Positions 7,488-53,638 are shown, numbered from the stretch's first letter. The stretch: DNA of 64,000 nt from Candidatus Shapirobacteria bacterium (GCA_018062705.1 JAGORQ010000001.1:21624-85623), one strand, 5' to 3'. Made by a program: numbers and translations. Notes: generated by a model not told the origin, from the letters alone.

Positions 7488-7515
7488 TTAGAGACGCGCC
7501 ATGGTGCGTCTCTAC
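7488..7515. repeat. Family B palindrome (TTAGAGACGCGCC ATG GTGCGTCTCTAC) just 3' of the map stop
   Basis: Perfect inverted repeat. The outer GAGACGC/GCGTCTC stems are shared with 7 other copies. Confidence 0.6.
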
Positions 7516-7525
7516 GGAGAAGATA

Positions 7526-8284
7526 TCAGAGTCGAGTTAATACCTCACAACCATTTTCGGTTATCAAAACAGTATGTTCGAATTGGGCAGAAAGTGAACC
7601 GTCATGAGTGCGGATAGTCCAACCATCATTTTTGTCCAACACTACTTGCCAGTCGGAAGAAGCGTTGACCATTGGCTCAATGGTAAAAATCATGCCTGGT
7701 TTTAAGACAGTGTCGTCGGAACGGTTGGCAAAATGATAAACGAACGGATCTTCGTGAAACTTGACTCCAACGCCGTGCCCACCTAGGTCGCGGACGATAC
7801 CATAACCATATTGACGAAGATAGTTGTCGATAACTTTACCGACACAATCATTGATGTTTTTGCCAGGTCGGAGTGCCGAAATCGCTAAGTCTAGTGATTG
7901 GCGGGTCCGATCGAGCAATTGGGAGGCTTTTTTATCCACCTGACCAACCGGATATGAGGCGGAGGTGTCGCCATAATAACCGTTTAAAATAGTGGTGATA
8001 TCGAGGTTGATGATATCGCCGGTTTTGAGGATATCTTTGGGGGACGGGATACCGTGGCAAACCACATTATTGATAGAAGTGCAGAGGCTTTTGGGGAAGC
8101 CATTGTAATTTAGTGGGGCAGGAATTGCGCCATGATCAAGAATAAATTTATGGACAGCAGTATTTAGTTCTTCAGTTGAAGTCCCCTCTCTGACAAACTT
8201 TGAGGCAAAAATTAGAGTCTCGGCTGCCAATTTAGAAGATTTTCTAATTCCCTCGATTTGTTCGGGAGTTTTGATAATAATCAT
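7526..8284 (-). CDS. map: Methionine aminopeptidase type I
   Basis: Conserved metal-binding D/D/H/E/E context (DIINLDIT, HGVG, FTIEPM, EHTV). Confidence 0.9.
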   Translation of the reverse strand: MIIIKTPEQIEGIRKSSKLAAETLIFASKFVREGTSTEELNTAVHKFILDHGAIPAPLNYNGFPKSLCTSINNVVCHGIPSPKDILKTGDIINLDITTILNGYYGDTSASYPVGQVDKKASQLLDRTRQSLDLAISALRPGKNINDCVGKVIDNYLRQYGYGIVRDLGGHGVGVKFHEDPFVYHFANRSDDTVLKPGMIFTIEPMVNASSDWQVVLDKNDGWTIRTHDGSLSAQFEHTVLITENGCEVLTRL

Positions 8285-8305
8285 ATTGGTTGATTATAGC
8301 GCAGA

Positions 8306-8402
8306 ATCGTCATTGCGAGGAGTCTTATCATACGATCCCCAAAGGGGACAGGCTACACAATCCCAACGAGATTGCCACGACCTTCGGCCTCGCAATGACG
8401 TT
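8306..8402. repeat. Family C composite element (TCGTCATTGCGAGG ... CAATCCCAACGAGATTGC ... CCTCGCAATGACG) between the deacetylase stop and the map start
   Basis: 13-bp terminal inverted repeats enclose a CCAACGAGATTGC module that is shared with 38199, 54715 and 57268. Confidence 0.5.
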
Positions 8403-9138
8403 AATTTAATAACTCGGATAATTTAACAAAATTAAAGCCCTTGGATCGGAGATAGGGAATGGTAGCCTCGAGGGCCTCAGCAGAGTGAGGGGCATTTTTG
8501 TTGCCATGAAAATGGAAGAGTAAAATCGAACCATTTTGGGTTTTGGTTTTGATACTATTAATAATTGCCGGGAGATTGTCGTTAAAAGAATCGGTGCTGG
8601 CGGCATCCCAACCAACAACGGTTAAGCCGTACCTATTTGCCAGTTTAATATCAGTATCAGTTTGGCAACCACCCGGAAAACGAAAAAAATTGGGAGTAAT
8701 ACCAGTGATTTTTTTGATGGCTGATTGGGATTTTTCAAACTCCCCGTCACCACCCCAGGTGGGCATAGCAGGTAGGGCGAAGCATTGGTCAGCAAAACGA
8801 GGATGAGAGTAAGAATGGTTGGCAATTTCAAACAGTGGGTTACTAGCTAATTGACGTGATATATCTGGATAAAGCTCGGCCCACATACCGGACATAAAAA
8901 TTGTGGCGGGAATTTTTTCCCGTTCCAAAATTTCGACTATTTTATCGTTGTACCATGACTTTACTTTACCTTGTTTTAATTCTTCTACCATACCGGGGGT
9001 CATGTCAGCATCAAAAGTTAAGGCAATATTTGGTTGGGTTCGCGGTCCGTGGCTGACGTACGAAATAAATTTTGGCGAATCGACTGAGGTGGTGTGAACA
9101 TTGAAAAACGAAACTAGAAACAAAAAGAACTTAGTCAT
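8401..9138 (-). CDS. Polysaccharide deacetylase (CE4/NodB domain), secreted
   Basis: TFDADMTPGM...ANHSYSHP...LLFHFHG motifs. N-terminal signal/TM from the internal Met (MTKFFLFLVSFF). Confidence 0.75.
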   Translation of the reverse strand: MTKFFLFLVSFFNVHTTSVDSPKFISYVSHGPRTQPNIALTFDADMTPGMVEELKQGKVKSWYNDKIVEILEREKIPATIFMSGMWAELYPDISRQLASNPLFEIANHSYSHPRFADQCFALPAMPTWGGDGEFEKSQSAIKKITGITPNFFRFPGGCQTDTDIKLANRYGLTVVGWDAASTDSFNDNLPAIINSIKTKTQNGSILLFHFHGNKNAPHSAEALEATIPYLRSKGFNFVKLSELLN

Positions 9139-9760
9139 TTTCCCGTCGATAAAGAAAGTAGGAGTAAACAAAAACAAATATCACAGAGCCAAATAATGGC
9201 ACCATTAAAAAATAGACAGACAGTGTGGGCCAAAAGACTCCCAACAATGAAGTTAAGGCGCTAAGTTTGAAAAGCTTACCGCCGACTTGGTGGGTTTGAT
9301 TCCAGACTGATTCACTACTCAAAGTCCAGGGGGTGCGAATGCCGACAAACCAGTTGCGCCTGGCTTTTTGATTAAGAACCCCGGCATAATAAAAAATTAA
9401 AGAAAGTGCTGGTAATAAAAACTGAGTTAAATTAAATTCAAATCCATAATTCCAAGCAATCGTCAAAAAGTATATATAGAATAAAAAGACAAAGACTAAA
9501 TTTACAAAATTATCGTAGTATTTTTTGAACTGAGCAAAGTTGTGTTTGTACGGATCGGTTTTGGGTAAAAATAAAAACAGAAAATACAACAAAATTAATA
9601 ATGTTGGTAAAAAGAATAGACCAAAGCTTTTGGATGAATAGCCATCTACATTGTTATTGATTCCCCAATGAGTGACGATAGTAGGTGGCAGGTAAGGAAA
9701 CGAAATGATAGCTAGAGCAAACGACAATAAAATTATTAGTGGTGGAATGAATTTTTTCAT
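9131..9760 (-). CDS. SdpI/YhfL-family (DUF1648) integral membrane protein
   Basis: About 6 TM helices with a THWGINNNVDGY N-terminal motif, like SdpI immunity-type proteins. Confidence 0.4.
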   Translation of the reverse strand: MKKFIPPLIILLSFALAIISFPYLPPTIVTHWGINNNVDGYSSKSFGLFFLPTLLILLYFLFLFLPKTDPYKHNFAQFKKYYDNFVNLVFVFLFYIYFLTIAWNYGFEFNLTQFLLPALSLIFYYAGVLNQKARRNWFVGIRTPWTLSSESVWNQTHQVGGKLFKLSALTSLLGVFWPTLSVYFLMVPLFGSVIFVFVYSYFLYRREND

Positions 9761-9816
9761 TTGGTTAATTTTACCACTTGACCGTGAGACTGAACTACGA
9801 CTAAAATGATATAAGT

Positions 9817-10392
9817 ATGTTTAAACTAAATCCCCTACCCTATGCCTACGAGGCGCTCGAACCAGTTATTAGCCGTAAAATTATGGAGTTGCATCACGAT
9901 AAACACCATGCGGCCTATGTGACAGCGGCCAACGTAGCGACAGAAAAATTAGCTAAGGCCAGAGCTGGTGAGATAGAAATTGATACCCGAGCAGTAATGC
10001 GCGATTTTAGTTTTAATGCCAACGGAGCAATGATGCATGATATTTTTTGGAACTGTATGCGGGCACCAACTGAAAATAATTTACCGACTGGAAAAATGCT
10101 TGAAGAAATTAACCGAGGTTATGGTAGTTTCGAGGCTTTTAAAAAAGAATTTACGGTTGCCGCGACCACAGTGGAAGGCTCGGGCTGGGCAGTAATGTAT
10201 AAGACTCCCGAAGTACTGACTACAGGGCAACTAGAGAAACATAATTTAATGGCGCTTAATGGCTGTTTGCCAATCTTGGCTTTGGATGTATGGGAACATG
10301 CCTACTATCTTGATTACCTCAATGACCGCAAAACTTATGTAGAAAAGTGGTGGTCGTTAGTCAACTGGGAAGCAGTTGAAAAAATGTTATAG
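9817..10392 (+). CDS. sodA: Fe/Mn superoxide dismutase
   Basis: LHHDKHH N-terminal motif and DVWEHAYY C-terminal motif. Confidence 0.9.
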   Translation: MFKLNPLPYAYEALEPVISRKIMELHHDKHHAAYVTAANVATEKLAKARAGEIEIDTRAVMRDFSFNANGAMMHDIFWNCMRAPTENNLPTGKMLEEINRGYGSFEAFKKEFTVAATTVEGSGWAVMYKTPEVLTTGQLEKHNLMALNGCLPILALDVWEHAYYLDYLNDRKTYVEKWWSLVNWEAVEKML

Positions 10393-10881
10393 ATTGTCGA
10401 GGATCGAGTTGATTTCGGTATTCAAATCGCCGGTGAAAGAAGCGGTTAGAACAGAAACCTGATCTTTTTGAATTTTTATTCGTTGAATCAAGCTGATTTT
10501 GACTTTTTGATTGTAGTAATAGCCAGATAAATTGGCCGTATATAAATTTTCTGAAGATTTTCTTTTATCATCGGTGATGGTGAGAGAAGGGATGGCTGAA
10601 GTAGCGCCAGCAATTAAACTATCAGTATATTTGGCTGGAGCAGTAGCTTCAGATGACTGATTGATAGTTTTGACTATTTGGGGTTTGATGCCACTAGTAT
10701 TTTTTTCTAATTTTAAAGCTACGTTTTTGGCCTCAACAGCAGACCAGCCAGCAGGAAGTTTGTTGATTGAGTCAGAGGAAACCTGAGGCTCAGCTCGACG
10801 AAACATTGTTGGACGACGATAGATTAAATAACCACAAAGTACACCTAGAACTAAAAGAGAAGGGAGGATATATTTTTTCAT
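10387..10881 (-). CDS. Hypothetical N-terminally anchored protein, co-transcribed with the sortase
   Basis: 164 aa with a single N-terminal TM. Its start overlaps the sortase stop at the same nucleotide. Confidence 0.4.
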   Translation of the reverse strand: MKKYILPSLLVLGVLCGYLIYRRPTMFRRAEPQVSSDSINKLPAGWSAVEAKNVALKLEKNTSGIKPQIVKTINQSSEATAPAKYTDSLIAGATSAIPSLTITDDKRKSSENLYTANLSGYYYNQKVKISLIQRIKIQKDQVSVLTASFTGDLNTEINSILDNL

Positions 10882-12197
10882 TATTTGATAATTGAAGCTT
10901 TAACAATAATGCGAGAGTTAGGATAAGTGACACTACAAGTCATTAGGGCAATTTGATCACCAGTTGTCTTAATTGAGTCGACTTGGGATTTGTCGACAAA
11001 AAGCTTGTCGGTGATTTGGTAGGTTGATACCAAACCGTTATTTTCAGTCATGACTTTGTCACCAATATTTAGAGTAAATAACTGGCTAAAGACACCATAG
11101 CCATTGTGGCCGTAGTAGAGGTTGCCCTCACGTAAAACTTCGTTGTGACCGACAATAAATTGATCGCCAATTTTTTGGGGTAAATAAATTGGTTGGTTTA
11201 AATTAAGGGAGGGAATAATTAGCGCTTGATTAGTGTCGAGAGTATTTCCTGAAGGAAGTTTCTCGGTGGAATAGACCACTTCGGCAGTAGCTGCTAATTC
11301 AGAAGAAGTGCCGAGAACTGATCCACCATAACTATTTTTGATGCCATCAATTAGCGGATTGTTGTTTGTTCTAGCTCCTAGTACTCGAAAACCACCAACA
11401 TTTTGGTTGGTACAAACTACATTACTCGGGCTACCACCACGACAACCGTTTTGGGCCTGAACATAAAAACAATATTTGCCACCAGGATTGAGGGCCTTGA
11501 CAGTGTAAGTGGTGACGTTACCAACATTGGGATCACCATATATATAGTTGCCGGTAGTTGGGCCATAACCAACAGCATAGCTAGTGTGATTGCCAGGAGC
11601 ATGATTCCAAGTTAACAAAACTTTACCTCCACCGAGAGCAATGGCCACTAAATTTTGAGGTGCACCGGGATCTGAATCATTGCATGAAGGAGGATTGTTG
11701 TTCGAATTATTTGAAGGTTGAGGGGTTTGATTCTCCACCTGCGCCGTTGGCTCTGGCGAGACAAAGGGTGTGACTGTGGGAATTATTTGACAACTCTCAG
11801 TCTGTTCACAATTTAGAGTTGGAGTAACTGTTGGGGTATTTGATGGAGAAATAGTAGCTGTAGGGCTGGGATTTGAAGTAATCGTGGGTGAGGGAGTTTT
11901 CGTGGCCGTTGGGGTACGAGTGGGTGTGTTGGTAGGGCGACAATCATCATCGTCATGACGACCATGACGGCCATGTTGATTATCGTCACAATCATCATCG
12001 TGATGATTTGAAGTGGGGGTAGGGGTTGGGGTGCGAGTAGGTGTAGGTGTGCGAGTTGAAGTTGGGGTTCGAGTTGGGGTGGGAGAATTCCATTTTGCCT
12101 CAGAAACAATTTTATTCTGAAAAAATTTAGAATTAATAAAGAACACTTCGATTATTGCTAGTGCAACAATCAGACCTGCTTTGATTGTTTTTACCAT
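10881..12197 (-). CDS. Sortase-family transpeptidase with an N-terminal TM, a Pro/Thr-rich linker containing HDDDDC motifs, and an FN3-like domain
   Basis: C-terminal sortase fold with the active-site motif ALMTCS (TLxTC). (TPTRTPTP)n low-complexity region. FN3-like block ([20 protein letters not shown]...YCFYVQAQN). Confidence 0.7.
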
Positions 12198-12296
12198 ATT
12201 GGGAGATAGTATAGCACTATGAGATATAATTTGATAGGTTTTGATGATTGGGTGAGGCTATGCCAATTTTAGGTGGCGAGAGTTTGAGATTTATTA

Positions 12297-12324
12297 GTAG
12301 AGACGGGGCATGCCCCGTCTCTAC
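12297..12324. repeat. Family B palindrome (GTAGAGACGGGGCATGCCCCGTCTCTAC), intergenic
   Basis: Perfect 28-nt palindrome. Confidence 0.6.
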
Positions 12325-12400
12325 ATGATATTTCAAACAATTGTTGATAACCAAAACAAAGAGTCGCACCCAGACAATAAAAAAATATATAATATGCATC

Positions 12401-13165
12401 ATGACAACAGATACTTCATGGAAAAATGTGGGTGGGTGGTACAAAGAAATTGTCGGTGAGGAAGGGCACTTTTATCACCGTGAGGTGGTGTTGCCAAACC
12501 TACTTCGACTGATGAAACTGGATAATAAATCAAAAGTTTTGGATTTGGGCTGTGGACAGGGTGTATTGGCTAGGGCATTGCCCCCTGAAATATATTATTG
12601 GGGAGCAGACATGGCGCCAAATTTAATTGAAGAAGCAAAGAGACTCGATAAAAATCCCCGCCATGTATTTGGGGTGGCCGATGCCACTAAAACTATTCCC
12701 ATAGTTGAAACCGGATTTAGCCATATAACTGTAGTGCTGGCATTACAAAATTTGGAGAGTCCGTTTAAATTGATGAGGAATGTAGACAAATTAATGGCCA
12801 AGGATGGTAGGTTTTTTATCGTATTAAACCATCCGGCTTTTAGAATTCCCAAAAATAGTGACTGGGAAGTTGATGAAAATAAAACAGTGCAATATCGAAA
12901 AGAAAGTAAGTACATGTCTCCCTTAAAAATTGCGATTGAGTCCAGTCCGTTTGATAAAAAGAATAATCAAATTAGCATGTCTTATCATTATCCAATATCA
13001 GCCTATAGTGAAATGTTGCACGACAATGGCATGGTGATAGAAGTGATTGAAGAATGGGTGTCGCCCAAAAAATCGCAAGGACCTATGGCTAAAATTGAAG
13101 ATGTAGCCCGGCGAGAGTTTCCGTTATTTATGTGCATTGTGGCAAGAAAGGTCCAGTCGGGTTAA
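12401..13165 (+). CDS. Class I SAM-dependent methyltransferase
   Basis: VLDLGCGQGVLA motif I. TATAAT lies 7 nt upstream of this ATG. The ORF-track start at 12341 is an upstream extension. Confidence 0.65.
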   Translation: MTTDTSWKNVGGWYKEIVGEEGHFYHREVVLPNLLRLMKLDNKSKVLDLGCGQGVLARALPPEIYYWGADMAPNLIEEAKRLDKNPRHVFGVADATKTIPIVETGFSHITVVLALQNLESPFKLMRNVDKLMAKDGRFFIVLNHPAFRIPKNSDWEVDENKTVQYRKESKYMSPLKIAIESSPFDKKNNQISMSYHYPISAYSEMLHDNGMVIEVIEEWVSPKKSQGPMAKIEDVARREFPLFMCIVARKVQSG

Positions 13166-13173
13166 AATATTTC

Positions 13174-13380: not shown

Positions 13381-13424
13381 ATAGCTAGAAGATTTTTTGC
13401 AGATTTATTGGTACTATACGGTCA

Positions 13425-14170: not shown

Positions 14171-14320
14171 ATTCTGTTATATATGGTAGACTACCATCTG
14201 ATTTTACGTTAGGCAACGAATCATAATACTGCCCCTGGTACAGATAGCTGTACATAAATATTTATTTTGTGGGCAAATATTACCCCGATGTGTTATCGGG
14301 ATGCCACAATTTAATAAAAT

Positions 14321-15520
14321 ATGTACAACAACAGTCGTCGTTTTGGTGGATACAATAATCATTCTCACCGTCCAAGTTTTGGTGGCAGACCTAAACGCGC
14401 CGGATTTGCTAAAAAAATAGACGAGAGATTATTTGTCAAAAAGGCAGAGGAGTTCAAAACAATTGATGAAGCAGTAACGGTAAATAGTTTTGCCGATTTT
14501 GGACTTAATCCAGTACTGCAAAAAAATATTGTGGGTAAGGGTTATACCAAACCAACTCCAATTCAGGATAGAGTAATTCCAGAGATAATGGCAGGTAAAG
14601 ATGTGTTGGGAATTGCTAACACGGGAACCGGTAAGACAGCAGCCTTTGCACTACCTTTGATCAATAAAATTTTGCAAAAACCGAATACCAGAATTTTAAT
14701 TATGGCGCCAACTCGCGAGCTGGCACAACAAATTAAACAAGATTTCCGATCTTTTACCTATGACTTGAAAATATATATCGCTTTAGCGATTGGTGGTTCG
14801 TTTATCCGCGAACAGATAATGGATATTCGTCGTGATCCACACATTGTGGTAGGCACACCAGGAAGAATTATGGATTTGGCAGAGCGCCGAGTAATTAATT
14901 TTGCAAAATTTGATACGGTTGTTTTAGATGAAGTTGACCGAATGTTGGATATGGGTTTTGTGGAAGATATCAAGGGTATTATGCAACAAATTCCTAAGAC
15001 TCGACAAACACTTTTCTTCTCGGCCACAGTAGATCGAAAAATTGAAACATTAATCGATACCTTTTTGACAAACCCAGCTAAAATTTCAGTTAAAACTCAA
15101 GATACTTCGTCTCACGTCGAACAAGATGTGGTCCGAGTAGCTCGTGGTCAAAAAGAAAGCAAATTGTGTGACCTATTAACCCAAGAACATTTCAAAAAAG
15201 TGTTGGTCTTTGGTGCCACCAAAATGATGGTGGACAGAATTACCACCACCTTGATTCAGAGAGGTTTTAGAGCTGATTCAATTCATGGTAACAAGGCCCA
15301 AAATAAACGTCAGAGAGTCTTGCAAGCATTCAAACTTAGCCAAATAAATATTTTAGTGGCCACAGATGTGGCGGCACGGGGACTAGATATTGCTGATATT
15401 TCCCATGTAATTAATTATGATCAACCAAATAACTACGAAGATTATATTCACCGAATTGGTCGTACTGGCCGAGGTGATGCCAAAGGTTTTGCTTTGACGT
15501 TTGTTGAAGAGAGATACTAA
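14321..15520 (+). CDS. DEAD-box ATP-dependent RNA helicase with an Arg/Gly-rich N-terminus
   Basis: Q motif (PTPIQ), Walker A (ANTGTGKT), DEVD (DEAD variant), SAT, and HRIGRTGR motif VI. Confidence 0.85.
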   Translation: MYNNSRRFGGYNNHSHRPSFGGRPKRAGFAKKIDERLFVKKAEEFKTIDEAVTVNSFADFGLNPVLQKNIVGKGYTKPTPIQDRVIPEIMAGKDVLGIANTGTGKTAAFALPLINKILQKPNTRILIMAPTRELAQQIKQDFRSFTYDLKIYIALAIGGSFIREQIMDIRRDPHIVVGTPGRIMDLAERRVINFAKFDTVVLDEVDRMLDMGFVEDIKGIMQQIPKTRQTLFFSATVDRKIETLIDTFLTNPAKISVKTQDTSSHVEQDVVRVARGQKESKLCDLLTQEHFKKVLVFGATKMMVDRITTTLIQRGFRADSIHGNKAQNKRQRVLQAFKLSQINILVATDVAARGLDIADISHVINYDQPNNYEDYIHRIGRTGRGDAKGFALTFVEERY

Positions 15521-15531
15521 AACATTAAATT

Positions 15532-15559
15532 GTAGAGACGTTGCGCGCAACGTCTCTAC
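15532..15559. repeat. Family B palindrome (GTAGAGACGTTGCGCGCAACGTCTCTAC) between convergent genes; possible bidirectional terminator
   Basis: Perfect palindrome 12 nt after the DEAD helicase stop, followed by an A-run on + and a T-rich stretch on -. Confidence 0.55.
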
Positions 15560-15571: not shown

Positions 15572-16288
15572 TTATTTTTTTCCTGTTTCTATTTTACGCC
15601 TGGTTTCGCGGAGGGCGAGGCGGGGAAGAGTTAGACCCTGAGTTTCAAGGTACTCCCTAACTATTGATGGAAAGTTTTTGACCATTGAGCGGAGAATCCA
15701 AGAAACTGCTTTTGTTATCAGGATATCTGTTTCAAATTTTAGTTTTTCAACTAGCTCGAGTGATAGATTGGCTAGTTTTAAATTACTTGATTGGCGGAGT
15801 GGCTTACACAAGAAAACTATTGAAGCGCGACGCTGGTTAATGTTTTTTGATGTCGATAATTTCTTTAAAAATTTTGACCAATTTGGAAAATTTTCCAACA
15901 TAATTTCTGCCGAAACATCCGAGCTACACAAACTATCCACTTCTGCCCAACCATGGGTAAAGGTCAACCAATAGTCAAATTTATTGAGAGGAATTTGAGA
16001 GATAATCTTAGGATAGAATCCAATAAGTGAAGCTGCAAAAGAGGTTTCTTCAAAAGTACTAGCTTCTGAATAAAGTTTGTCGATTAACTCAACTAACTCA
16101 TTAATATTTAGAGGGTTGGCTTTGGCAGTTTTTTTGGCTAACTGGCGAATGAGATCGGTTTTGATACAACGAGTAGGCTTGTTACTGCCGAGATATTTTT
16201 GAACCCAACTGCGTTCGGATGGGTTCTCTTTGCCGGGGAGTTTGAATAACTCTGTCTGGACTTGGCGATAAAATGATTGGATGTCCAT
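15572..16288 (-). CDS. DNA alkylation repair enzyme (AlkC/AlkD-like HEAT-repeat glycosylase family)
   Basis: Resembles the all-helical DNA alkylation repair enzyme family (WVQKYLGS..., WLTFTHGWAEVDSLC). Confidence 0.55.
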   Translation of the reverse strand: MDIQSFYRQVQTELFKLPGKENPSERSWVQKYLGSNKPTRCIKTDLIRQLAKKTAKANPLNINELVELIDKLYSEASTFEETSFAASLIGFYPKIISQIPLNKFDYWLTFTHGWAEVDSLCSSDVSAEIMLENFPNWSKFLKKLSTSKNINQRRASIVFLCKPLRQSSNLKLANLSLELVEKLKFETDILITKAVSWILRSMVKNFPSIVREYLETQGLTLPRLALRETRRKIETGKK

Positions 16289-26539: not shown

Positions 26540-26760
26540 TGTGTTGTTGGTCACCCCCTTTGGGTGACCGCCGTGAGGACTCTTCCTATTCGCACCCATT
26601 TCTGTGCTACTTATGGAGAGGATACCTATTGGTAAAACTATAGGAAGAGTCCTAATTCCGGTCTCAGACGTTTCTGACTACACGAACAATACAAACGAAC
26701 AAACGTCTGAACTAATAAATGGTGGAGTCCACCGCTTGTTAGTTCAGACGTTACCTAAAC
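26540..26760 (+). ncRNA. Candidate structured non-coding RNA of unknown family, in a 477-nt non-coding gap
   Basis: Stacked hairpins: ggtcaccccctttgggtgacc; a 15-bp inverted repeat gaggactcttcctat / ataggaagagtccta; tcagacgtttctga; and a 13-bp stem acgtctgaactaa / ttagttcagacgt enclosing ggtggagtccacc. A TATAAAT box lies about 70 nt upstream. No conserved RNase P, tmRNA or SRP motifs were seen. Confidence 0.25.
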
Positions 26761-28859: not shown

Positions 28860-29503
28860 TGTCGTATTTACAAATAAATGATTTTGATGCGGAGTTAGAG
28901 CAGTTGCAGTTGAAACACGGCAATCCGAGTATCTGTTCAATAAATGGAGCCGGTTGTATTGATAACCCAAGACTATTTCTTTTGTTTATGAATCCGACAG
29001 CAAAAAATGTATCGGCCAACAAAAACTGGAGAGGTTTGAGAGCGCCATGGATTGGGACAAAAAATATTTGGAAACTGCTACTTAAACTTAATTTAATAGA
29101 CAAGGAACAATTTGATAAAACTCAGAAATTAAAACCGACTGAGTGGACAACGGATTTTGCAGAAAGCTTATATAAAACTTTGGCTAATAATAAAATCTAT
29201 TTAAGCAATTTGGCTAAGTGTACTCAGGATGATGCCAGACCACTAAAGAATGCCGTGTTTAGGGAATATTTAGAGCTAACTAAAAAAGAAGTTTATAAAG
29301 TGTCAGCAATAAATATAGTTTCGTTTGGAGTGCAAGTGAGCGAAATTTTACTGGGAAAGAAAATTGAATTGAAAAGTTCGACTGAAGAAGAATTGGTGAT
29401 TGAGGACAAAAAGTTTAATATCTATCCAACTTATTACCCGGTGGGACAAGGAATGAGAAATATGGGTAAAGCGGTGGAGCGAATATCAGCGCTTCTTGGG
29501 TAA
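28859..29503 (+). CDS. Uracil-DNA glycosylase superfamily protein (family 4/5-like)
   Basis: UDG-like motif block (LFLLFMNPTA...) and overall ~210-aa size. The assignment is tentative. Confidence 0.4.
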   Translation: MSYLQINDFDAELEQLQLKHGNPSICSINGAGCIDNPRLFLLFMNPTAKNVSANKNWRGLRAPWIGTKNIWKLLLKLNLIDKEQFDKTQKLKPTEWTTDFAESLYKTLANNKIYLSNLAKCTQDDARPLKNAVFREYLELTKKEVYKVSAINIVSFGVQVSEILLGKKIELKSSTEEELVIEDKKFNIYPTYYPVGQGMRNMGKAVERISALLG

Positions 29504-30397
29504 ATCGTGGTGGAAGATTACTTTGCCAAGAGCTAGAGTCATGGGACGGTTTTTCATGGAGTCAAGAATTATTTTATTTAAATTATCGCGGTACTCAGCG
29601 GTGTCGGCAGACTCAAAATCGGGAATTAGTTCGGGGGAATTTTTTTGAAGATACTCGTAAAGTCGGGTTTTGATTTTGGAACTTTGATTGAGATGTTCAA
29701 ACCAAACTTCGGAAACTCCGGCATGCTGGAGCGCATCGAGCAATTCATTAATGGCTTTTTTATTATTGACAAAATGTGGCAGAATTGGACCGACAAAGGC
29801 GTAAGTGGAAACACCATTATCGTGTAATTGTTTTAGTGCTTCAATGCGAGCAGAAATAGGTGGTGCTAGAGGTTCGAGAAAGCGAGCCACTTGGTCGTCG
29901 AGTGTGGTGACAGTAAAACCAACTTGAACTTTTTTTAATTTTTTTAAAATATCAATATCTTGAGTAACCAAGGGTGATTTTGTTTGAATGCCAATTGCTC
30001 CTTCATAACCAAAATCAACAAAAACTTGAAGACATTGGCGGGTGATATGGTATTTGGCTTCGAGACCGGTGTAGGGGTCGGTGACCGAACTAAAAAAGAT
30101 AAAACCAAAATCTTTTGATGATTTAATTTTATTTTGGTGTGTAGAGACGCCAGGCCTGGCGTCTCTACGAGACAGCTTGTTTAATTCATTTTTTAATAAT
30201 TCAGGCGCGTTGGTTTTGACATCTAAATAACTCCCCCACTCTTCATCGGGGTGATGCCAGCGGGCTATTTGGGCGGCATAGCAGTACGTGCAACCGAGCT
30301 GGCAACCGCCGTAGGAATTAACTACCCAATCGGCACCAGGCAGACCGGATTTGGTGAGGATTGTTTTGGCGGTAATTTCGTTAATTTTGAGGAGCAT
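29486..30397 (-). CDS. Radical SAM protein of the spore-photoproduct-lyase/DNA-photolyase-like (SplB) type, carrying an in-frame family B palindrome insert
   Basis: The CxxxCxxC cluster (CQLGCTYC) near the N-terminus and the overall architecture fit SplB-like rSAM. Residues SRRDARPGVST are encoded by the palindrome at 30141..30168. Confidence 0.55.
   Translation of the reverse strand: MLLKINEITAKTILTKSGLPGADWVVNSYGGCQLGCTYCYAAQIARWHHPDEEWGSYLDVKTNAPELLKNELNKLSRRDARPGVSTHQNKIKSSKDFGFIFFSSVTDPYTGLEAKYHITRQCLQVFVDFGYEGAIGIQTKSPLVTQDIDILKKLKKVQVGFTVTTLDDQVARFLEPLAPPISARIEALKQLHDNGVSTYAFVGPILPHFVNNKKAINELLDALQHAGVSEVWFEHLNQSSKIKTRLYEYLQKNSPELIPDFESADTAEYRDNLNKIILDSMKNRPMTLALGKVIFHHDLPKKR
30141..30168. 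repeat. Family B palindrome (GTAGAGACGCCAGGCCTGGCGTCTCTAC) in-frame inside the radical SAM gene
   Basis: Perfect 28-nt palindrome. The minus-strand reading frame passes through it without a stop. Confidence 0.6.
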
Positions 30398-41564: not shown

Positions 41565-41598
41565 TAATTACTAATTACTAATTACTAATTACTAATTT
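41565..41598. repeat. (TTACTAAT)n microsatellite in the divergent promoter region between the rluB-like gene and the nuclease gene
   Basis: taattactaattactaattactaattactaattt. Confidence 0.4.
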
Positions 41599-45735: not shown

Positions 45736-45737
45736 AA

Positions 45738-46421: not shown

Positions 46422-46423
46422 CT

Positions 46424-46452
46424 AAAAAAACCCGTCGCAAGACGGGTTTTTT
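46424..46452. terminator. Rho-independent terminator, bidirectional (A-run, CCCGTC GCAA GACGGG, T-run)
   Basis: aaaaaaacccgtcgcaagacgggtttttt. Confidence 0.7.
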
Positions 46453-46475
46453 GATGGATTTTAAAATGTACCCAA

Positions 46476-46501
46476 AGAGACGCATTGCAATGCGTCTCTA
46501 C
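46476..46501. repeat. Family B palindrome (AGAGACGCATTGCAATGCGTCTCTAC) overlapping the RAYT2 stop codon
   Basis: Perfect palindrome. The minus-strand TAG of RAYT2 lies inside it. Confidence 0.6.
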
Positions 46502-47040
46502 AATTTGGAAAATAATCTGTCCTTTTGCCAGTTTTTGGGGTTGTTTCTGATGTAGTATTTGATTTGAGTTAACCGTTTTTCGTCGTGAATAATTTCGTCA
46601 TAAAAACGAGGTTGCCAGGCGAAATAAATATTATGTTTTTTGCAGATGCGTTTGACGGCACCTTTGAAGGATTTGATGGTTTGGGAAATTGTTTGGATTG
46701 ATTTGGAATTTATATCTTGATAAAAATCTGGGTGGTTCCGATGGCTATGGATAAATATTGGCGTTGGGGAACTTTCGTGTAGAGACGCATGGCAATGCGT
46801 CTCTACAGGGATATCCCGAATGGTGATTAGCAGGTGAACATGGTTGGGCATGACCACCCAGGGGTTGATAATTAAAGATTTTCGAATAGAGATGGTTTTG
46901 ATTAATTCATCAACAGCAATTTGACCCCTATCCGATAATTCCATTTTTCCGTTGATAATTTTGCCAAAGAAATTGTTATGGTTGTAGGTGCAGATGGTGA
47001 TGAAGTAAAAGCCAGGTGTGGAGTAGTCCCAACCATTCAA
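46498..47040 (-). CDS. IS200/IS605-family HuH Y1 transposase (RAYT-like), second copy, carrying an in-frame family B palindrome
   Basis: YFITICTYN N-terminal motif, HuH (PNHVHLLIT), C-terminal YYIRNNPKNW. Residues VETHCHASLH are encoded by the palindrome at 46779..46806. Confidence 0.7.
   Translation of the reverse strand: MNGWDYSTPGFYFITICTYNHNNFFGKIINGKMELSDRGQIAVDELIKTISIRKSLIINPWVVMPNHVHLLITIRDIPVETHCHASLHESSPTPIFIHSHRNHPDFYQDINSKSIQTISQTIKSFKGAVKRICKKHNIYFAWQPRFYDEIIHDEKRLTQIKYYIRNNPKNWQKDRLFSKL
46779..46806. repeat. Family B palindrome (GTAGAGACGCATGGCAATGCGTCTCTAC) in-frame inside RAYT2
   Basis: Differs by 1 nt from the copy at 46476. Confidence 0.6.
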
Positions 47041-47094
47041 TCGATTGGATTCAGTGCGATATTTTTCGGCAAAGCGGAGAACAAATAAATTGTA

Positions 47095-47652
47095 CTATTT
47101 TTGGCAGGCAGTGGGTGACCAGAGGCCGAGATTGTTCGATTCAGCCTGTTTTTGGGAATCTTTGAACTGTGTTTGGAATTTGTAGGGAATGCGATAGGTG
47201 TATTCATGACCATAACCATTCGCAATGATTTTTTGATTAACTAGGGTGCCGTCGGGCAGATAAACGTAGCGTAGTAGTCGGCCGTATTTGTCGAGATTGC
47301 CTTGGGTTGGGTCGGATACCAATATTACACTTTGATTTTCCAAAAGTTTTTTGGTGAACTCTGAGGCTTCCTTTCCAAAACACTGGACCGGTTTGCGCGG
47401 GTCGACCACTTCGGGAGTGTCGACACCAATTAGGCGGACCGTTTCGATTTTATTATCGATAATAACTTTGATGGTGTCACCATCAACGACCCGGTCGACT
47501 TTTACTGGTGCACCTGAAATTGAGGCGGTGATTGACGGTGTAACAGTGGCAACTATTTTTGTCGGCGTGACGGACGGAAATAAACTCTTAACTAATTTAG
47601 CCTGACTGCGAGGGAGAAAAAGGAGAAGGAAGGAGAGGAGAAGAATTTTCAC
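47095..47652 (-). CDS. Secreted thermonuclease (SNase/micrococcal nuclease family)
   Basis: Signal peptide, VVDGDTIKV...RLIGVDTPE, and YG...R catalytic residues. Confidence 0.8.
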   Translation of the reverse strand: MKILLLSFLLLFLPRSQAKLVKSLFPSVTPTKIVATVTPSITASISGAPVKVDRVVDGDTIKVIIDNKIETVRLIGVDTPEVVDPRKPVQCFGKEASEFTKKLLENQSVILVSDPTQGNLDKYGRLLRYVYLPDGTLVNQKIIANGYGHEYTYRIPYKFQTQFKDSQKQAESNNLGLWSPTACQK

Positions 47653-48548: not shown

Positions 48549-48565
48549 GACTGATTATAACCCAA

Positions 48566-48766
48566 TCAGGCGGTGACGGAGCAGAAGACTCTTTTCTCGC
48601 CATAGTCGTGTTTATCAAACTGTTTTTGATGTTTAGTATCATGCTCGGCAAATTCCTCCTTAAAAACTCGATGCATTTCTTTGATTATAAGTTTAAAGTA
48701 TTCACCAAACTTAACGTCGAATTTTTCATCAATTTTTTTCTCTAACTTATCACTAAATTCTTGCAA
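48566..48766 (-). CDS. Small charged hypothetical protein
   Basis: 66-aa Lys/Glu-rich ORF. Confidence 0.3.
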   Translation of the reverse strand: MQEFSDKLEKKIDEKFDVKFGEYFKLIIKEMHRVFKEEFAEHDTKHQKQFDKHDYGEKRVFCSVTA

Positions 48767-48853
48767 ATCCTTTTTTGTAACAAAATCAGTATTCTTGTTT
48801 ATAAATAATACTACCTCTAGTTTTAATTTTTAAAAATAGACATCAAAAGCATC

Positions 48854-49468
48854 TCAGAAAGTCAGATGACCGTAGCAGGTATTGCCATTGGTACCACTAT
48901 TGGTACCATCGGGACAAGTGGTGGTAGCTCCCCAATAAACATTGGTGATAGTGGTATTGGTAAAAATTGCCTTGTCAAAATTTGAATTATAAGTTTGACC
49001 GTCGATACTAAAAATAGCACCAGTTAGATTGGCGTTGGTAAAATTGGCACCAACTGCTTGGACATCTGTCAGCCTGGCACCGGTAATGTCGTCACCGGTG
49101 AAATCAGTACCGTTGAGACGAGCATAGTTGAGATTGGCACCAGTTAGTTTGTGGCCGGTAAAATCATGATAAATAATTCGTTCTTGTGACAAATCGGCAT
49201 TGGTCAGATCGGTGAGATATGAACCAGAGGTACTATAAATATTGTTGGTGATGTAGGTGGTGGTACCGACACCAGTTGAACTACCACCAGTACTTAGGGT
49301 GACTGCAGTTTCACGAGGAAAACAAGTTTGCTTACCAGCAATAATTCTGATTAAACCAAGCGGGGTGATACAAGCATTTAGCGAACCGGCGGCCAAAACT
49401 TCTTTAGTGACTAGAGCCACAACTAAACCAATAACGAGACCAGTACAGAGAATCGTTATTTTTTTCAT
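48854..49468 (-). CDS. Secreted pentapeptide-repeat protein
   Basis: Signal peptide plus tandem A(D/N)LxG pentapeptides (ANLNYARLNGTDFTGDDITGARLTDVQAVGANFTNANLTGAIF). Confidence 0.75.
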   Translation of the reverse strand: MKKITILCTGLVIGLVVALVTKEVLAAGSLNACITPLGLIRIIAGKQTCFPRETAVTLSTGGSSTGVGTTTYITNNIYSTSGSYLTDLTNADLSQERIIYHDFTGHKLTGANLNYARLNGTDFTGDDITGARLTDVQAVGANFTNANLTGAIFSIDGQTYNSNFDKAIFTNTTITNVYWGATTTCPDGTNSGTNGNTCYGHLTF

Positions 49469-49551
49469 TAAATTAATAATATAATCTTGGTACAGAGAGT
49501 CAATGACCTAGAGTGGTGAAACCGTAGCTGAAACAAGGTAGAATTGTCAAT

Positions 49552-51249
49552 ATGTGGAACTGGAAAAAATGGTTGATGGTTGGCATACTGACTGGATTAG
49601 CAGTATTTAGATTTAGTGGAATACTGAACAATCCTCCATCGCTGTTTTCTGATGAGGTGGATGAGGGTTACCAGGCATTTGTTTTAAATAACTGCGGTAC
49701 GGATTATTTTGGAAATAAATGGCCAGTGCATTTTCAATCTTTTGCCGACTTTAGAACACCGCTTTATATATATAGTATTGCTGGACTAGAAAGATTAGGA
49801 GTAGGGAGCGAACTGGCAGTGAGATTGCCGTCAGCAATTATGGGGATAGTTACTATTGGTGGCTTTTTTGGATTAATAATGTTGGTGTTTAATAACTATT
49901 GGCTGGCAGTGACCGGAATGGTCTTGCTAGCAATTAACCCGTGGTGGTGGCATTTTAGTCGAGGTGGGTGGGAAGTGGTGGGGATGATAATGTGTTTGTT
50001 GTGGGCACTAATTTGCTGGCTAAAATATTTGGATAACAAGCGAATTGGCTGGTTGTTGACTGGAGCAACTTTACTGGCGGGAAGTTTTTATTTTTATGCT
50101 ACTGCCAAAATGATGGCGGTAATATTGGGGATATTGCAAATTATCGTCTGGAGAAAACAGACCACAAAAATTGACAAAAAACATTTAATATTGGGGCTGG
50201 CTTGGTTGATGTTGGTAAGTGCGCCGATGATCAAAGACACTTTAAATGGGCGGGCTGGATACCGGTTTAATTATATTAATATTTTTTCTGACCCTACCAA
50301 TTCAAAAGTGGTTGACGGGGTACGTTACCAGGATGGGTTGTTGATGCAAAAGAAAGATACGGTTGGAATAGTGCCCAGCGCTGAAACTAAAATTGCTCAC
50401 AATAAACTAAGTTTGTTGGTGTCTAAATTTGGACGAAATTATCTAAAAGCATTTTCGACTGATTATTTATTTTTGACTGGCGACGGAAATTTGCGACATG
50501 GATTTGGAAGCAAAGGTTACTTGCTTTATCCAGATTTTATTTTAGTTATTTTGGGAATTGGAGCGGTCATATTTTCAAAAAAATACAAAAATAATCTGGG
50601 GACATTCATGTTGGGATGGTTACTGTTGGCACCAATTCCCAATGCGTTGACTCGGGATAGTGATTTTCCAAACGGTACTCGGTTGCTACTGATGTTAATA
50701 CCTCTTATGTACTTGGTGGTGGTGGGAATTAAAACTATTTGGAACAAAAAATGGCTACTGGCAATTACACTGGTAACCTACGGTTTGTCGTTTGCTGATT
50801 TTTATCATTATTATAGTTATCACTTTCCTCAAATTGCGCCAAAGGAATGGCATTACGGTATTAAAGAAGCGGTAAATGAATCGATTAAATTGGCACAACC
50901 TGATGACAAAATATATTTTAGTAATAGTTATGAGCCAGTACTACCATTTTTTTGGTTTTATAATAATTATTTACCGAGTAGTGGTAGCTGTGTGCCAGCA
51001 AAGGCGCTGGTAAAAACTAGCGAGTTTGGATTTGAAGGCAAAAGTTTGGAAAATAAATATTATTTTGGTAATTTTGAATGGAGGGAAATGGTGAAGAACA
51101 GATCCAGCCTAGAAAACAAAATATTTGTAATCAATAGCAAAGATATGGATCAAATTAAAATGTTACCGGGAGTAAAAGTTGACTTTTTGGCTCTACCACA
51201 AATTAAGTTTACCGAACAAGAAAAATTTTGGATAATCAGGCTAGATTAA
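49552..51249 (+). CDS. GT-C fold glycosyltransferase (PMT/ArnT-like, GT39/83) polytopic membrane protein; second paralog
   Basis: DE loop motif (FSDEVDEGYQAF) and about 12 TM helices. Confidence 0.6.
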   Translation: MWNWKKWLMVGILTGLAVFRFSGILNNPPSLFSDEVDEGYQAFVLNNCGTDYFGNKWPVHFQSFADFRTPLYIYSIAGLERLGVGSELAVRLPSAIMGIVTIGGFFGLIMLVFNNYWLAVTGMVLLAINPWWWHFSRGGWEVVGMIMCLLWALICWLKYLDNKRIGWLLTGATLLAGSFYFYATAKMMAVILGILQIIVWRKQTTKIDKKHLILGLAWLMLVSAPMIKDTLNGRAGYRFNYINIFSDPTNSKVVDGVRYQDGLLMQKKDTVGIVPSAETKIAHNKLSLLVSKFGRNYLKAFSTDYLFLTGDGNLRHGFGSKGYLLYPDFILVILGIGAVIFSKKYKNNLGTFMLGWLLLAPIPNALTRDSDFPNGTRLLLMLIPLMYLVVVGIKTIWNKKWLLAITLVTYGLSFADFYHYYSYHFPQIAPKEWHYGIKEAVNESIKLAQPDDKIYFSNSYEPVLPFFWFYNNYLPSSGSCVPAKALVKTSEFGFEGKSLENKYYFGNFEWREMVKNRSSLENKIFVINSKDMDQIKMLPGVKVDFLALPQIKFTEQEKFWIIRLD

Positions 51250-51701
51250 ATTTGACCTAAAGATATTTTTTGGATGCTGACTGGCTGATCGTTGACCATG
51301 ACTTTGGTGCCAATCGGTTGACCGAGAAGGGCAATGCCGAGTGGACTGTCAGCGGATACCCAGTCTGGACGGAGTCGAGCATCGTTTTTGCCAACCAAGG
51401 TGAGGGTGATTTGACGTTTATCGGTTTCAAAAAAAATAGTGACCTGGTGACCAAACTCGACAGTATTGGTTTGAGTTGGAGCGGTAGCCACAGTTGATTC
51501 TTTTAAATCGGTTTCGAGTTGATCAATTTGAGATTGAAGCACCTGGGCTCGTTCGCCTAGAAAGATGTAGGCGGAATTTTCTTTGAGGTCGCCCTCGGCG
51601 GCGGCGGCTTGACGCTCGTCGTAGGTGCGGGTGAGCTCGGACTTGAGCTCCTGAATTTGAGTGGTAAGGTTGTCTAAACCTAGTTGAGTAATCAAGGACA
51701 T
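51246..51701 (-). CDS. greA: Transcription elongation factor GreA
   Basis: N-terminal coiled coil (LTTQIQELKSELTR...) and C-terminal FKBP-like domain (VEFGHQVTIFF...GKNDARLRPDWVSADSPLGIALLG). Start at the internal Met. Confidence 0.8.
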   Translation of the reverse strand: MSLITQLGLDNLTTQIQELKSELTRTYDERQAAAAEGDLKENSAYIFLGERAQVLQSQIDQLETDLKESTVATAPTQTNTVEFGHQVTIFFETDKRQITLTLVGKNDARLRPDWVSADSPLGIALLGQPIGTKVMVNDQPVSIQKISLGQI

Positions 51702-51748
51702 GACGTCTATTTTAACACAAGAGCTAGTTTTGTAAGTTATACTTTGGC

Positions 51749-52447
51749 ATGAAATATGCAGTTTTGACAGGCGGATCATCAACAATTGGGCGGTTAGTAG
51801 CCAACGAGTTAATTAAAAATGATTTTGAAGTGGCGTTAATTGGACGAGATACTCAAAAATTAAAAGAAATCGGATTGCCGTATATTGAAGCAGATTTGTC
51901 GAACACAAAAAATATAGATACGTTAGTTAATAAAATATTAGAAAAAAATAAAAAAATAGACTTAATTGCCAATATTGCCGGTGTCTGGCACAACTCCGAT
52001 AGTGTTTTTGCTGGCGTAGATTTTGAGAAGTTTGAAGATAAAACAATAACTGAAACGATGAATGTGGGGATTTTGTCGCCGATGCTTTTGGTAAAGAAAT
52101 TAATTCCCAATATGGCAACTAATTCTTTGATAACTAATTTGTCTGGTACTTTTGAAAATGGGGGAAAAGGCTGGCTTCCTTATTTTGTTTCAAAAAGAGC
52201 GATTGAAGATTTTACTGTAGGATTAGCTGACGAATTACGAGAGAAAAATATTCGGGTGTGTGGAATTTCACCATCGGACACAGCAACCGAAAGTTATAAA
52301 AAGTTTTTCCCACAATATATTGAAGATTCTCTTGACCCAAGAGAAATTGCTAAATTTGTAACAGATCTATATTTTAATTCAAAAGAAACTGGGAAAATTT
52401 TTGTATTGAAAAAAGACACAAAACCTTTTGAGAATTTTCATTATTAA
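51749..52447 (+). CDS. SDR-family oxidoreductase
   Basis: TGGSSTIGR Rossmann motif, NIAG, YxxxK (YFVSKRA). Confidence 0.8.
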   Translation: MKYAVLTGGSSTIGRLVANELIKNDFEVALIGRDTQKLKEIGLPYIEADLSNTKNIDTLVNKILEKNKKIDLIANIAGVWHNSDSVFAGVDFEKFEDKTITETMNVGILSPMLLVKKLIPNMATNSLITNLSGTFENGGKGWLPYFVSKRAIEDFTVGLADELREKNIRVCGISPSDTATESYKKFFPQYIEDSLDPREIAKFVTDLYFNSKETGKIFVLKKDTKPFENFHY

Positions 52448-53007
52448 TGACCTACAAAACTCATAATGCATTTGGATTGGGATTGATGTTGGCGATAGCC
52501 ATATATCAGCCGGCAGAATCGATTGGGGTGGCCACAATAATTTTGGCGCTAATTGCTAATGCAGTTGGATCGATTGCCCCAGATATGGATCAGGGGTCAA
52601 ACAAGCTTTGGAGTATGTTGCCGGTGGGCAATATTATTGGAAAATTTTTGAGACGAATTTTTTTGGGGCACAGAGCAGTGTCACACTCATTCTTGGGAAT
52701 CTGGATAATTTATAAAATAAACATGTGGATATTTTTTAATATATTTAACCCTAATTTTGTAAATCCGGAGTGGATTGTGTTGGGATTTATGGTGGGATAT
52801 TTGTCGCACATTTTGATTGATGGATTAACTGAAGAGGGTGTTCCCCTACTCTGGCCACTGCCCTGGAAAGTAGGCTTCCCGCCAATTAAACCCTGGCGGA
52901 TAAAAACTGGTAAATGGTTTGAAAACTTGATTATTTTTCCAGGAATATTATTGTGGATTGGCTGGATGGGGTGGGATAAGTGGCTTCACTTGATATTGTT
53001 TTTATAG
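52447..53007 (+). CDS. Membrane-bound metal-dependent hydrolase, YdjM/DUF457 family
   Basis: Conserved His residues in TM segments (HNAFGLG...HRAVSHSFLG...HILIDGLT). Confidence 0.45.
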   Translation: MTYKTHNAFGLGLMLAIAIYQPAESIGVATIILALIANAVGSIAPDMDQGSNKLWSMLPVGNIIGKFLRRIFLGHRAVSHSFLGIWIIYKINMWIFFNIFNPNFVNPEWIVLGFMVGYLSHILIDGLTEEGVPLLWPLPWKVGFPPIKPWRIKTGKWFENLIIFPGILLWIGWMGWDKWLHLILFL

Positions 53008-53460
53008 AGAATGCCAATTGAACAATAGTAGAATTAGACTAGCGGTGGAAAACATCATGATGATTTGAAAAAAGACTTGCATAATAATCAGGCATTGTTG
53101 ATAAGAGATGTTGCCAAAAATATAGCGAAGAATTTGAAACCGATCATCAATATAATGTGGGAAATGCTTTGGTTCCAAAAATTGCTGGAGGAAAAAGTAA
53201 AGTGTTTCGCCGGCACTACGAATGACCCAAAAAATTAGGAAGAAAAATAAACCAAACTTTAGTTGCTCGGTGACTACGGTAATAATTGAGGCAATTAGAC
53301 CGTAAAGCGAGAAGATAAATATATCTTCCCAGACAAAGGCGCCAATTAAAAATGCCCAACTGTAGGTGAACTCGGCAATTTGCTTGCCCCGACGAATACT
53401 TCGCCAGGAGATGACTAAGAGGATTAAAAAAATTAGGGTAGAGAGGTAGGCGGGGAACAT
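53002..53460 (-). CDS. Hypothetical polytopic membrane protein
   Basis: About 4 TM helices from the internal Met MFPAYLSTLIF. The upstream part of the track ORF lies over repeats B7/B8. Confidence 0.4.
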   Translation of the reverse strand: MFPAYLSTLIFLILLVISWRSIRRGKQIAEFTYSWAFLIGAFVWEDIFIFSLYGLIASIITVVTEQLKFGLFFFLIFWVIRSAGETLYFFLQQFLEPKHFPHYIDDRFQILRYIFGNISYQQCLIIMQVFFQIIMMFSTASLILLLFNWHSL

Positions 53461-53496
53461 TGCCTGATTGTAACATTTATGAAAAAACTTGTACCA

Positions 53497-53522
53497 AGAG
53501 ACGTCATATATGACGTCTCTAC
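53497..53522. repeat. Family B palindrome (AGAGACGTCATATATGACGTCTCTAC)
   Basis: Perfect palindrome, intergenic. Confidence 0.6.
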
Positions 53523-53613
53523 AAAAATATTCTAGAGTCTTCGCTAAAACAAAACAAAACAAACAGAAGAGTTTAAATTGAAGATAAATACCTAGGTTTA
53601 GTTTTATGCTGAA

Positions 53614-53638
53614 AGAGACGCACATAGTGCGTCTCTAC
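53614..53638. repeat. Family B palindrome (AGAGACGCACATAGTGCGTCTCTAC) 4 nt from the stop of the minus-strand kinase gene
   Basis: Near-perfect palindrome with one central unpaired nt. Second copy 92 nt from B7. Confidence 0.6.

Follow-up and report, generated by a model that had tools for sequence, protein, structure and literature searches.

Introduction

The closest described relatives of the element reported here are repetitive extragenic palindromes (REPs) with their REP-associated tyrosine transposases (RAYTs, or TnpA_REP). Quentin, Siguier, Chandler and Fichant (2018, BMC Genomics 19:475, PMC6006769) sort the TnpA_Y1 family into subclasses, of which subclass 2.4 (Bertels group 4) is delimited, in the sections of that paper drawn on here, by the motifs NH[IFV]H, WQ and YIxNNP and a median length of 194 aa, with hosts among Cyanobacteria, Bacteroidetes and various other phyla. 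The consulted rows of its Table S1 give GTAGAGACGCACGGCCGTGCGTCTCTAC in Chloroflexus aggregans with the entry double foot = T, and relatives with GTAGGGGCG stems. In this work we describe eight dispersed palindromes, family B, in a 64,000-nt stretch of a Candidatus Shapirobacteria bacterium (GCA_018062705.1 JAGORQ010000001.1:21624-85623; the window below). They are very probably double-foot REPs of such a system, whose cognate HUH-Y1 enzyme (TnpA_REP subclass 2.4, Bertels group 4) would be encoded at 46498-47094 on the minus strand.

Cleavage and rejoining of folded single-stranded REPs by RAYTs is known for the enzymes of E. coli, S. maltophilia and Marinomonas, and in the TnpA_REP enzymes studied binding needs the folded single strand, while cleavage needs the tetranucleotide GTAG together with a perfect stem and falls on a CT dinucleotide adjacent to the REP (PMC8266576). 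Bertels et al. (2017) found group 4 RAYTs to be flanked by merely moderately abundant 16-mers, and in-frame REPs inside genes were reported by Di Nocera et al. (2013). The searched library held no literature linking REP/RAYT terms with Shapirobacteria or the candidate phyla radiation (CPR), and a literal text search of the literature for GTAGAGACG, the left arm of the palindrome, returned primer sequences only.

Results

A search for GAGACG-N(4-20)-CGTCTC finds exactly eight matches in the window, against 0.01 expected from dinucleotide-preserving shuffles, and these are the eight copies listed by an earlier reading made from the sequence alone (the sequence-only reading). All eight have the outer-stem spacing GAGACG-N(9-10)-CGTCTC. 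With its ends included, the unit takes the form of a 28-bp dyad, GTAG-AGACG-core-CGTCT-CTAC (28 nt in seven copies, 27 nt in copy 8), in which the 9 nt of foot and outer stem are conserved in each arm; the longer consensus GTAGAGACGC given by that reading is over-specified, its tenth base being C in only five of the eight. The cores themselves vary, with seven different ones among eight copies within 46 kb, and each is self-complementary. Five copies are perfect palindromes, two (7488 and 46779) carry one mismatch, and one has an odd length and a 3-nt loop; all eight fold as single DNA hairpins (-9.6 to -15.2 kcal/mol, z = -4.5 to -8.1). Their flanking sequences are unrelated to each other, so that this is a dispersed family and not the local duplication which the sequence-only reading had named as the case that would undo it. 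Neither Rfam, at its gathering thresholds, nor ARAGORN finds anything in the window, which places the repeats outside any known RNA family.

The two ends of the unit are not equally preserved. The 3' CTAC is intact in every copy, which puts a GTAG foot on the minus strand of all eight, and the 5' GTAG of the plus strand is intact in four, the other four reading TTAG, AAAG, CAAG and AAAG. Both feet are thus present in half of the copies and one foot in the other half (7488, 46474, 53495 and 53612). The one-footed copies all adjoin minus-strand genes, four out of four being too few for significance.

The window also encodes the putative enzyme. An open reading frame (ORF) at 46498-47040 on the minus strand matches the Pfam family Y1_Tnp (IS200-like transposases) and has the motifs NHVH, WQ and YIRNNP; it is 180 aa long from a TTG at 47040 and 198 codons from stop to stop, the homologues having mostly 185-200 aa. 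The association with a RAYT which the sequence-only reading had raised turned out to be a physical one: copy 6 lies in frame inside the gene, where it encodes the peptide VETHCHASL eight residues past the HuH motif (PNHVHLL...PVETHCHASLH), and copy 5 abuts it, the stop codon of the gene being the TAG of this copy's GTAG foot. No copy occurs upstream of the gene within the window.

The NCBIfam model for REP-associated tyrosine transposases scores the protein at 46.8 bits, under its cut-off of 80, and the NCBIfam IS200 model does not match it. A phmmer search of the PDB with the single protein found nothing, and it took a profile of 22 family members to match E. coli TnpA_REP (PDB 4ER8; E = 2.9e-6), with the insert dividing the match into two blocks. 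The residues that are invariant in the alignment (H67, H69, W142, Q143, R145, D148 and Y163) are all kept in the window protein. In its AlphaFold model the core has a predicted local distance difference test (pLDDT) score above 90 and residues 79-114, which are the REP-encoded insert, score below 50; a confident core beside such an insert would fit a tolerated surface loop.

A search of 5.8 billion proteins returned 149 relatives of this RAYT, several of them from Candidatus Shapirobacteria and Microgenomates, and those with names are labelled 'REP element-mobilizing transposase RayT' or 'transposase'. Nearly all of the 22 aligned homologues carry a REP-encoded peptide at the same place, some of them several times, in the form VETxxxASL or RDxxxxVST, which are the two open frames of the REP. 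A scan of metagenome contigs for the RAYT gave 80 loci, 40 of which have a 28/29-nt double-foot palindrome in the gene at an offset of 225-300 nt; a copy lies just downstream in about 10 and 74-303 nt upstream in about 11 of the 80.

The converse search, with the motif GTAGAGACG-N(8-12)-CGTCTCTAC over contigs of one genome per species, gave at least 120 loci. The motif is therefore present in other genomes, and the matches listed come from many phyla: Cyanobacteria, Bacteroidota, Chloroflexi, Spirochaetes, Omnitrophota, Geobacter, Acidobacteria, Zixibacteria and others. A RAYT homologue is encoded as well in six of the random 8-kb loci among the matches listed; in three of these the REP falls within the gene (L021, L082, L113), and in the other three it is next to it (L023, L054, L105). 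By raw count, with no null model, 41 of the 130 copies among the matches listed fall in stretches that run for 100 codons or more without a stop; 50 of the remaining 89 are within 50 nt of the stop of a long ORF, and in eight the TAG of the foot is itself the stop. The same motif occurs in at least 120 loci of IMG/VR contigs (L206-L325), which may be true phage sequences or host DNA within proviral contigs; there the fetched stretches hold no RAYT homologue and the matches listed are dominated by the asymmetric-loop cores CAAAATCTTG and CAATATTTTG.

The covariation of the cores reaches beyond the window. In 35 orthologous copies taken from within the gene, both partners vary at 10 of 14 stem positions, 98.6% of cells are paired, and no shuffle reached their covariation score; the paired fraction is biased upward, as this set was chosen by a palindrome finder. 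The genome-scan set is unbiased for core pairing, since only the outer 9+9 nt were fixed, and among its listed matches there are 89 distinct 10-nt cores, 63 of which are perfect palindromes. In these 89 cores complementarity runs, from the outermost to the central pair, 92, 94, 98, 90 and 84%, and the centre is usually purine-pyrimidine (CATG, AATT, TGCA, GGCC). A hairpin whose loop has at least 3 bases leaves no room for the last two pairs, so its stability does not explain the symmetry at these positions. Lineages of the CAAAATCTTG and CAATATTTTG types in IMG/VR lower the symmetry of pair 4 to 49% among the matches listed, which weakens the claim that the loop has to be symmetric. The selection on hairpin structure proposed in the sequence-only reading thus stands in one part, the self-complementary cores being real and covarying also across the 35 orthologous copies, and falls short in another, as a hairpin alone leaves the symmetric loop unexplained. 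Differences between copies at the same locus comprise 27 fully compensated pair changes, 39 changes in one arm and 10 others, so that both compensated and one-arm states exist, and these counts do not separate selection from active symmetrisation.

Table 1. The eight copies of the palindrome and the RAYT gene in the window (positions counted from its first base; a dot stands where no single strand is assigned)
Feature	Position	Strand	Description
REP copy 1	7488..7515	-	Core CGCCATGGTG, one G-T mismatch; GTAG on minus only (TTAG on plus)
REP copy 2	12297..12324	.	Perfect 28-nt double-foot palindrome, core GGGCATGCCC
REP copy 3	15532..15559	.	Perfect double-foot palindrome, 32 nt including flanks, core TTGCGCGCAA
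REP copy 4	30141..30168	.	Perfect double-foot palindrome, core CCAGGCCTGG; in frame in radical-SAM gene (29486-30397, minus)
REP copy 5	46474..46501	-	Core CATTGCAATG; GTAG on minus only; overlaps RAYT stop
RAYT / TnpA_REP gene (HUH-Y1, subclass 2.4-like)	46498..47094	-	PNHVHLL (HuH), AWQPRFYDEI, YIRNNP
REP copy 6	46779..46806	.	Double-foot, core CATGGCAATG on plus strand, one mismatch; in frame in RAYT gene
REP copy 7	53495..53522	-	Core TCATATATGA; GTAG on minus only
REP copy 8	53612..53638	-	27 nt, core CACATAGTG, 3-nt loop; GTAG on minus only

Six of the eight copies are extragenic, and four of these six lie within about 12 nt of a stop codon, in agreement with the sequence-only reading, which had placed several copies right after stops (Table 1). 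Copy 1 is 10 nt 3' of the stop of a methionine aminopeptidase gene (7526-8284, minus) and copy 8 is 4 nt 3' of that of a P-loop/kinase-like gene (53643-54086, minus). Copy 3 takes up most of the 51-nt gap left where a DEAD-box helicase gene (14321-15520, plus) and a DNA-alkylation-repair gene (15572-16288, minus) converge with their 3' ends; the locus L203 is syntenic here and too diverged in DNA for an empty-site comparison. One Logan contig (L001) ends exactly at copy 3; this is not taken as a sign of multiple copies, since de Bruijn assemblies can be broken by a perfect palindrome by itself. Copy 2 occupies a spacer from which two genes diverge, a sortase/fn3 gene (10881-12197, minus) and a methyltransferase gene (12341-13165, plus). 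Copies 7 and 8, between two minus-strand genes, are the only close pair (117 nt from start to start, with an 89-nt gap) and stand in direct orientation, each with its foot on the minus strand. They are covered by a 207-aa ORF call for a membrane protein, but the likely start of that gene is the ATG at 53460, 35 nt further on from copy 7 in the gene's direction, and copy 7 is probably intergenic.

Two copies do fall inside coding sequence, copy 6 in the transposase gene and copy 4 in a radical-SAM gene, both in frame and both in disordered or surface-loop regions of the protein. The radical-SAM protein (DNA repair photolyase-like) has 303 aa, against 290 aa in most homologues, which lack a 13-aa insertion, SRRDARPGVSTHQ (about 30134-30172), situated between conserved blocks in a variable stretch; the central RRDARPGVST comes from the second open frame of the REP. 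A homologue with 64% identity from another sample (L202; 8727-8756) has a degenerate copy, GTAGAGACGCCAAATCTGGCTTCTCTAC, at the same site and in the same frame, and the closer homologue at L203 has no insertion. There was either one old insertion, which some lineages lost precisely, or a hot spot at this site. The window's copy is still a perfect palindrome with 14-bp arms, and this, set against the decayed copy of L202, hints at maintenance in the window genome.

Discussion

The palindromes belong to a REP class that has already been described, and at the sequence level the element shows every trait by which subclass 2.4 is delimited in the consulted sections of PMC6006769. It shares with the double-foot REPs of Table S1, as far as its relevant rows go, the 28-nt palindrome, the GTAG/CTAC ends and the GTAGAGACG...CGTCTCTAC sequence type; the subclass motifs are all in the RAYT, which carries a REP past its HuH motif and has another at its stop, as in a REPtron, and the mostly extragenic position near gene ends is a general trait of REPs. 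It differs in its host, a member of the CPR (Patescibacteria), and in that half of the copies keep a single foot, which is on the same strand in each of them; the sections of PMC6006769 drawn on here do not take up loop symmetry or the variety of cores found in a single genome. Core diversity, loop symmetry and the strand consistency of the one-footed copies thus go beyond the cited literature in so far as its consulted parts extend. A variable core would also make the moderate 16-mer abundance reported for group 4 an expected result, and since only about 9 nt per arm are conserved whilst the core is free, REP surveys based on k-mers (16-mers) would under-estimate the abundance of the class.

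Other known systems resemble the element less closely. The E. coli REPs and bacterial interspersed mosaic elements (BIMEs), with their TnpA_REP (subclass 2.2, RAYT group 2; PDB 4ER8), share with it the HUH-Y1 enzyme, a GTAG 5' of a GC-rich hairpin, mostly extragenic copies near gene 3' ends and a REPtron-like layout beside the gene, but their palindrome is imperfect, has a bulge and leaves GTAG unpaired, and they form inverted pairs (BIME/REPIN) and are absent from within the transposase gene, whose product has the motifs DHLH, WE and YIHYNP. The REPINs of Pseudomonas (Bertels and Rainey 2011) likewise are symmetric units, with a GTAG-footed hairpin on either strand and a link to a single-copy RAYT; a REPIN, however, is made of two inverted REPs and a spacer, whereas the unit in the window is a single 28-bp dyad with no spacer and its copies are singletons, the one close pair (53495/53612) being in direct orientation. 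With the subterminal hairpins of IS200/IS605 insertion sequences (IS) the common points are a Y1 HUH transposase, a hairpin of folded single-stranded DNA and a 5'-foot tetranucleotide that guides cleavage, yet in the window the hairpins are dispersed singly, no left and right IS ends bracket the gene, tnpB is absent, and the tyrosine motif is YIRNNP (class 2, Y---NP) instead of Y---Q. Intrinsic terminators, finally, share the stable GC-containing hairpin often just past a stop codon, but the window REPs have no U-tract, have conserved GTAG/CTAC feet, and occur also in genes and between divergent starts.

By analogy with the studied enzymes (PMC8266576, PMC3333891), a REP exposed on single-stranded DNA would fold into a GTAG-footed hairpin, on both strands if both feet are intact, and the RAYT would recognise the foot and the AGACG/CGTCT outer stem of this hairpin. 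Nicking and rejoining at a nearby CT dinucleotide, several of which could be supplied by the conserved 3' CTCTAC, may then allow copies to spread or be maintained. The core would be free as long as it is paired, and with nothing but the foot and outer stem conserved, a single enzyme could act on every core variant. Copies would persist where they do little harm, that is, in short spacers just past genes and in tolerant protein loops, and if the host gains from them, for instance by the shielding of mRNA 3' ends, that gain would be secondary.

Several points weigh against the reading of the family as REPs served by this RAYT. We infer mobilisation by a subclass 2.4 RAYT from analogy with other enzymes, and recognition of a hairpin does not account for the symmetric loop positions. 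The double-foot unit pairs GTAG with CTAC, but what E. coli TnpA_REP reads is a single-stranded GTAG. The copy count rests on the eight of the 64-kb window and on about 10 kb of sequence beyond it, which has none; moreover, seven cores in eight copies are unlike the prediction of simple copying from one master element. The start of the gene is a further difficulty: the conserved N-terminal homology, RFAEKYRTESNR, extends in frame 5' of the TTG at 47040, reaching the TAG stop (47095-47097) of the preceding nuclease-like gene (47095-47652), and there is no ATG, GTG or TTG between that TTG and the upstream stop, the NCBI annotation starting from an internal Met and giving 148 aa only. The true start is thus uncertain, and with it the activity of the enzyme, which may be truncated or inactive given the missing canonical start codon.

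This last point is the main ground for thinking of a fossil system, with an inactive RAYT and with copies that are relics no longer moved or maintained. The mismatch in the RAYT's own copy, the loss of one foot in half of the family and the decay of the radical-SAM copy in L202, by which copies can evidently rot in place, go the same way. On the other hand the invariant catalytic and recognition residues are intact, the core of the protein is confidently modelled, and five of the eight copies, that in the radical-SAM gene included, are still perfect, which suggests ongoing maintenance or recent arrival, so that we consider a fossil the less likely state by a good measure, without its being far-fetched. 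That the palindromes are host regulatory RNA elements, either intrinsic terminators or stabilisers of mRNA 3' ends, with an incidental association to the transposase, seems improbable. Their hairpins are stable, the positions near stops in the window and among the listed matches of other genomes (see above) are what such elements would show, and E. coli REPs are established to stabilise upstream mRNA (cited in PMC6006769), by analogy with which stabilisation by the extragenic copies is possible. However, the terminator role put forward in the sequence-only reading finds little support: there is no proper T-tract, and a lax hairpin-plus-T scan flags only 12297(+) and 15561(-) and none of copies 5-8, in a window so AT-rich that 8-10% of all 8-mers already have at least five T or A. 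Upstream of the match at 12297(+) no gene lies on that strand. A canonical bidirectional terminator, AAAAAAACCCGTCGCAAGACGGGTTTTTT (46423-46454; 46425-46452 as hairpin plus T), already stands between copy 5 and the gene of an RRM-domain RNA-binding protein and shows the form that real terminators take in this genome; two copies are in coding sequence, and copy 2 is between divergent starts. Neither would an RNA role explain the GTAG/CTAC feet and the copy found inside the RAYT gene across phyla.

The symmetry of the two innermost core positions, which cannot pair in a hairpin and are nevertheless complementary in 90% and 84% of the 89 independent cores among the matches listed, could be taken as a sign of duplex-DNA sites for a dimeric protein, be it an operator or a nucleoid-organising factor. 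Such sites are very hard to reconcile with a central 10 bp that differs in almost every copy, since only the outer half-sites would be readable and the spacer between half-sites needs no palindromy, with the asymmetric loops of some lineages, or with the presence of copies in genes and in many phyla, always tied to one transposase family. Least credible of all is a type IIS (Esp3I/BsmBI-like, CGTCTC) restriction-modification system, which the sequence-only reading had found conceivable on account of the two inverted CGTCTC sites in each copy. Outside the copies the hexamer occurs nine times, against 11 expected for the whole window, which is neither avoidance nor enrichment, and homologous REPs, including those in the consulted rows of Table S1 of PMC6006769, have GGGGCG, GGGACG, GGAACG, GAGACA or GAGGCG in its place. 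The few window ORFs that were scanned against Pfam, the rest of the window being unscanned, show no restriction enzyme or evident DNA methyltransferase; one of them, beside copy 2, is a generic SAM-methyltransferase-domain protein (12341-13165).

Recognition of a hairpin leaves unexplained a palindrome that usually stays symmetric through its loop while its core changes. Quentin et al. suggest, in the section concerned (PMC6006769), that a double-foot REP could come from a central deletion of an inverted REP dimer. It is tempting to speculate, and we do so tentatively and against the odds, that dyad symmetry is actively regenerated by copying one arm onto the other, which would turn a one-arm mutation into a paired change, and not kept by selection alone. 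Arm-copying might occur by template switching at the hairpin during replication, or by RAYT strand transfer on both identical strands, and it would keep the palindrome perfect through the loop and make new cores while foot and outer stem stay fixed. If this were true, the REP inside the RAYT gene would be a heritable seed of the family.

With the assignment preferred here, that to double-foot REPs of a subclass 2.4-like RAYT, a conspicuous repeat and its probable enzyme are named in an uncultured, small-genome CPR bacterium. It also offers a rule for annotation, by which VETxxxASL or RRDxxxxVST peptides in otherwise conserved proteins are REP insertions.

Other features of the window

Besides family B, the window holds a second REP-RAYT system, independent of the first; this CPR genome thus hosts such systems and keeps two of them within 64 kb. 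Its Y1 transposase ORF (within 4986-5708, plus; NHIH, WQ, YIVNNP; NF047646, 65.8 bits) is preceded by 5.7 tandem 42-nt units (4986-5226), each made of the hairpin GGGTTTGG-GCAAG-CCAAACCC followed by CTAC, which on the minus strand reads as GTAG plus hairpin, and is followed by one inverted copy at 5708-5732. With its 'canonical long' REPs, the locus at 4986-5732 makes a classical REPtron. Heptamer tandem repeats, (TAATTAC)n, of four to five units each are found at 4423-4455, 5985-6015 and 41565-41598, two of which bracket this second RAYT locus.

At 26702-26752 the window has an inverted repeat of 25 nt (AACGTCTGAACTAATAAATGGTGGA / TCCACCGCTTGTTAGTTCAGACGTT; 1-nt spacer, 88% complementarity) that is unrelated to family B. 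From about 60120 to beyond 64000 a gene of 2822 aa, with no Pfam match on record, runs off the end of the window (Logan contig L205). The stretch at 60-64 kb, which is free of ORFs, higher in GC and reversed in GC skew, is explained by this gene.

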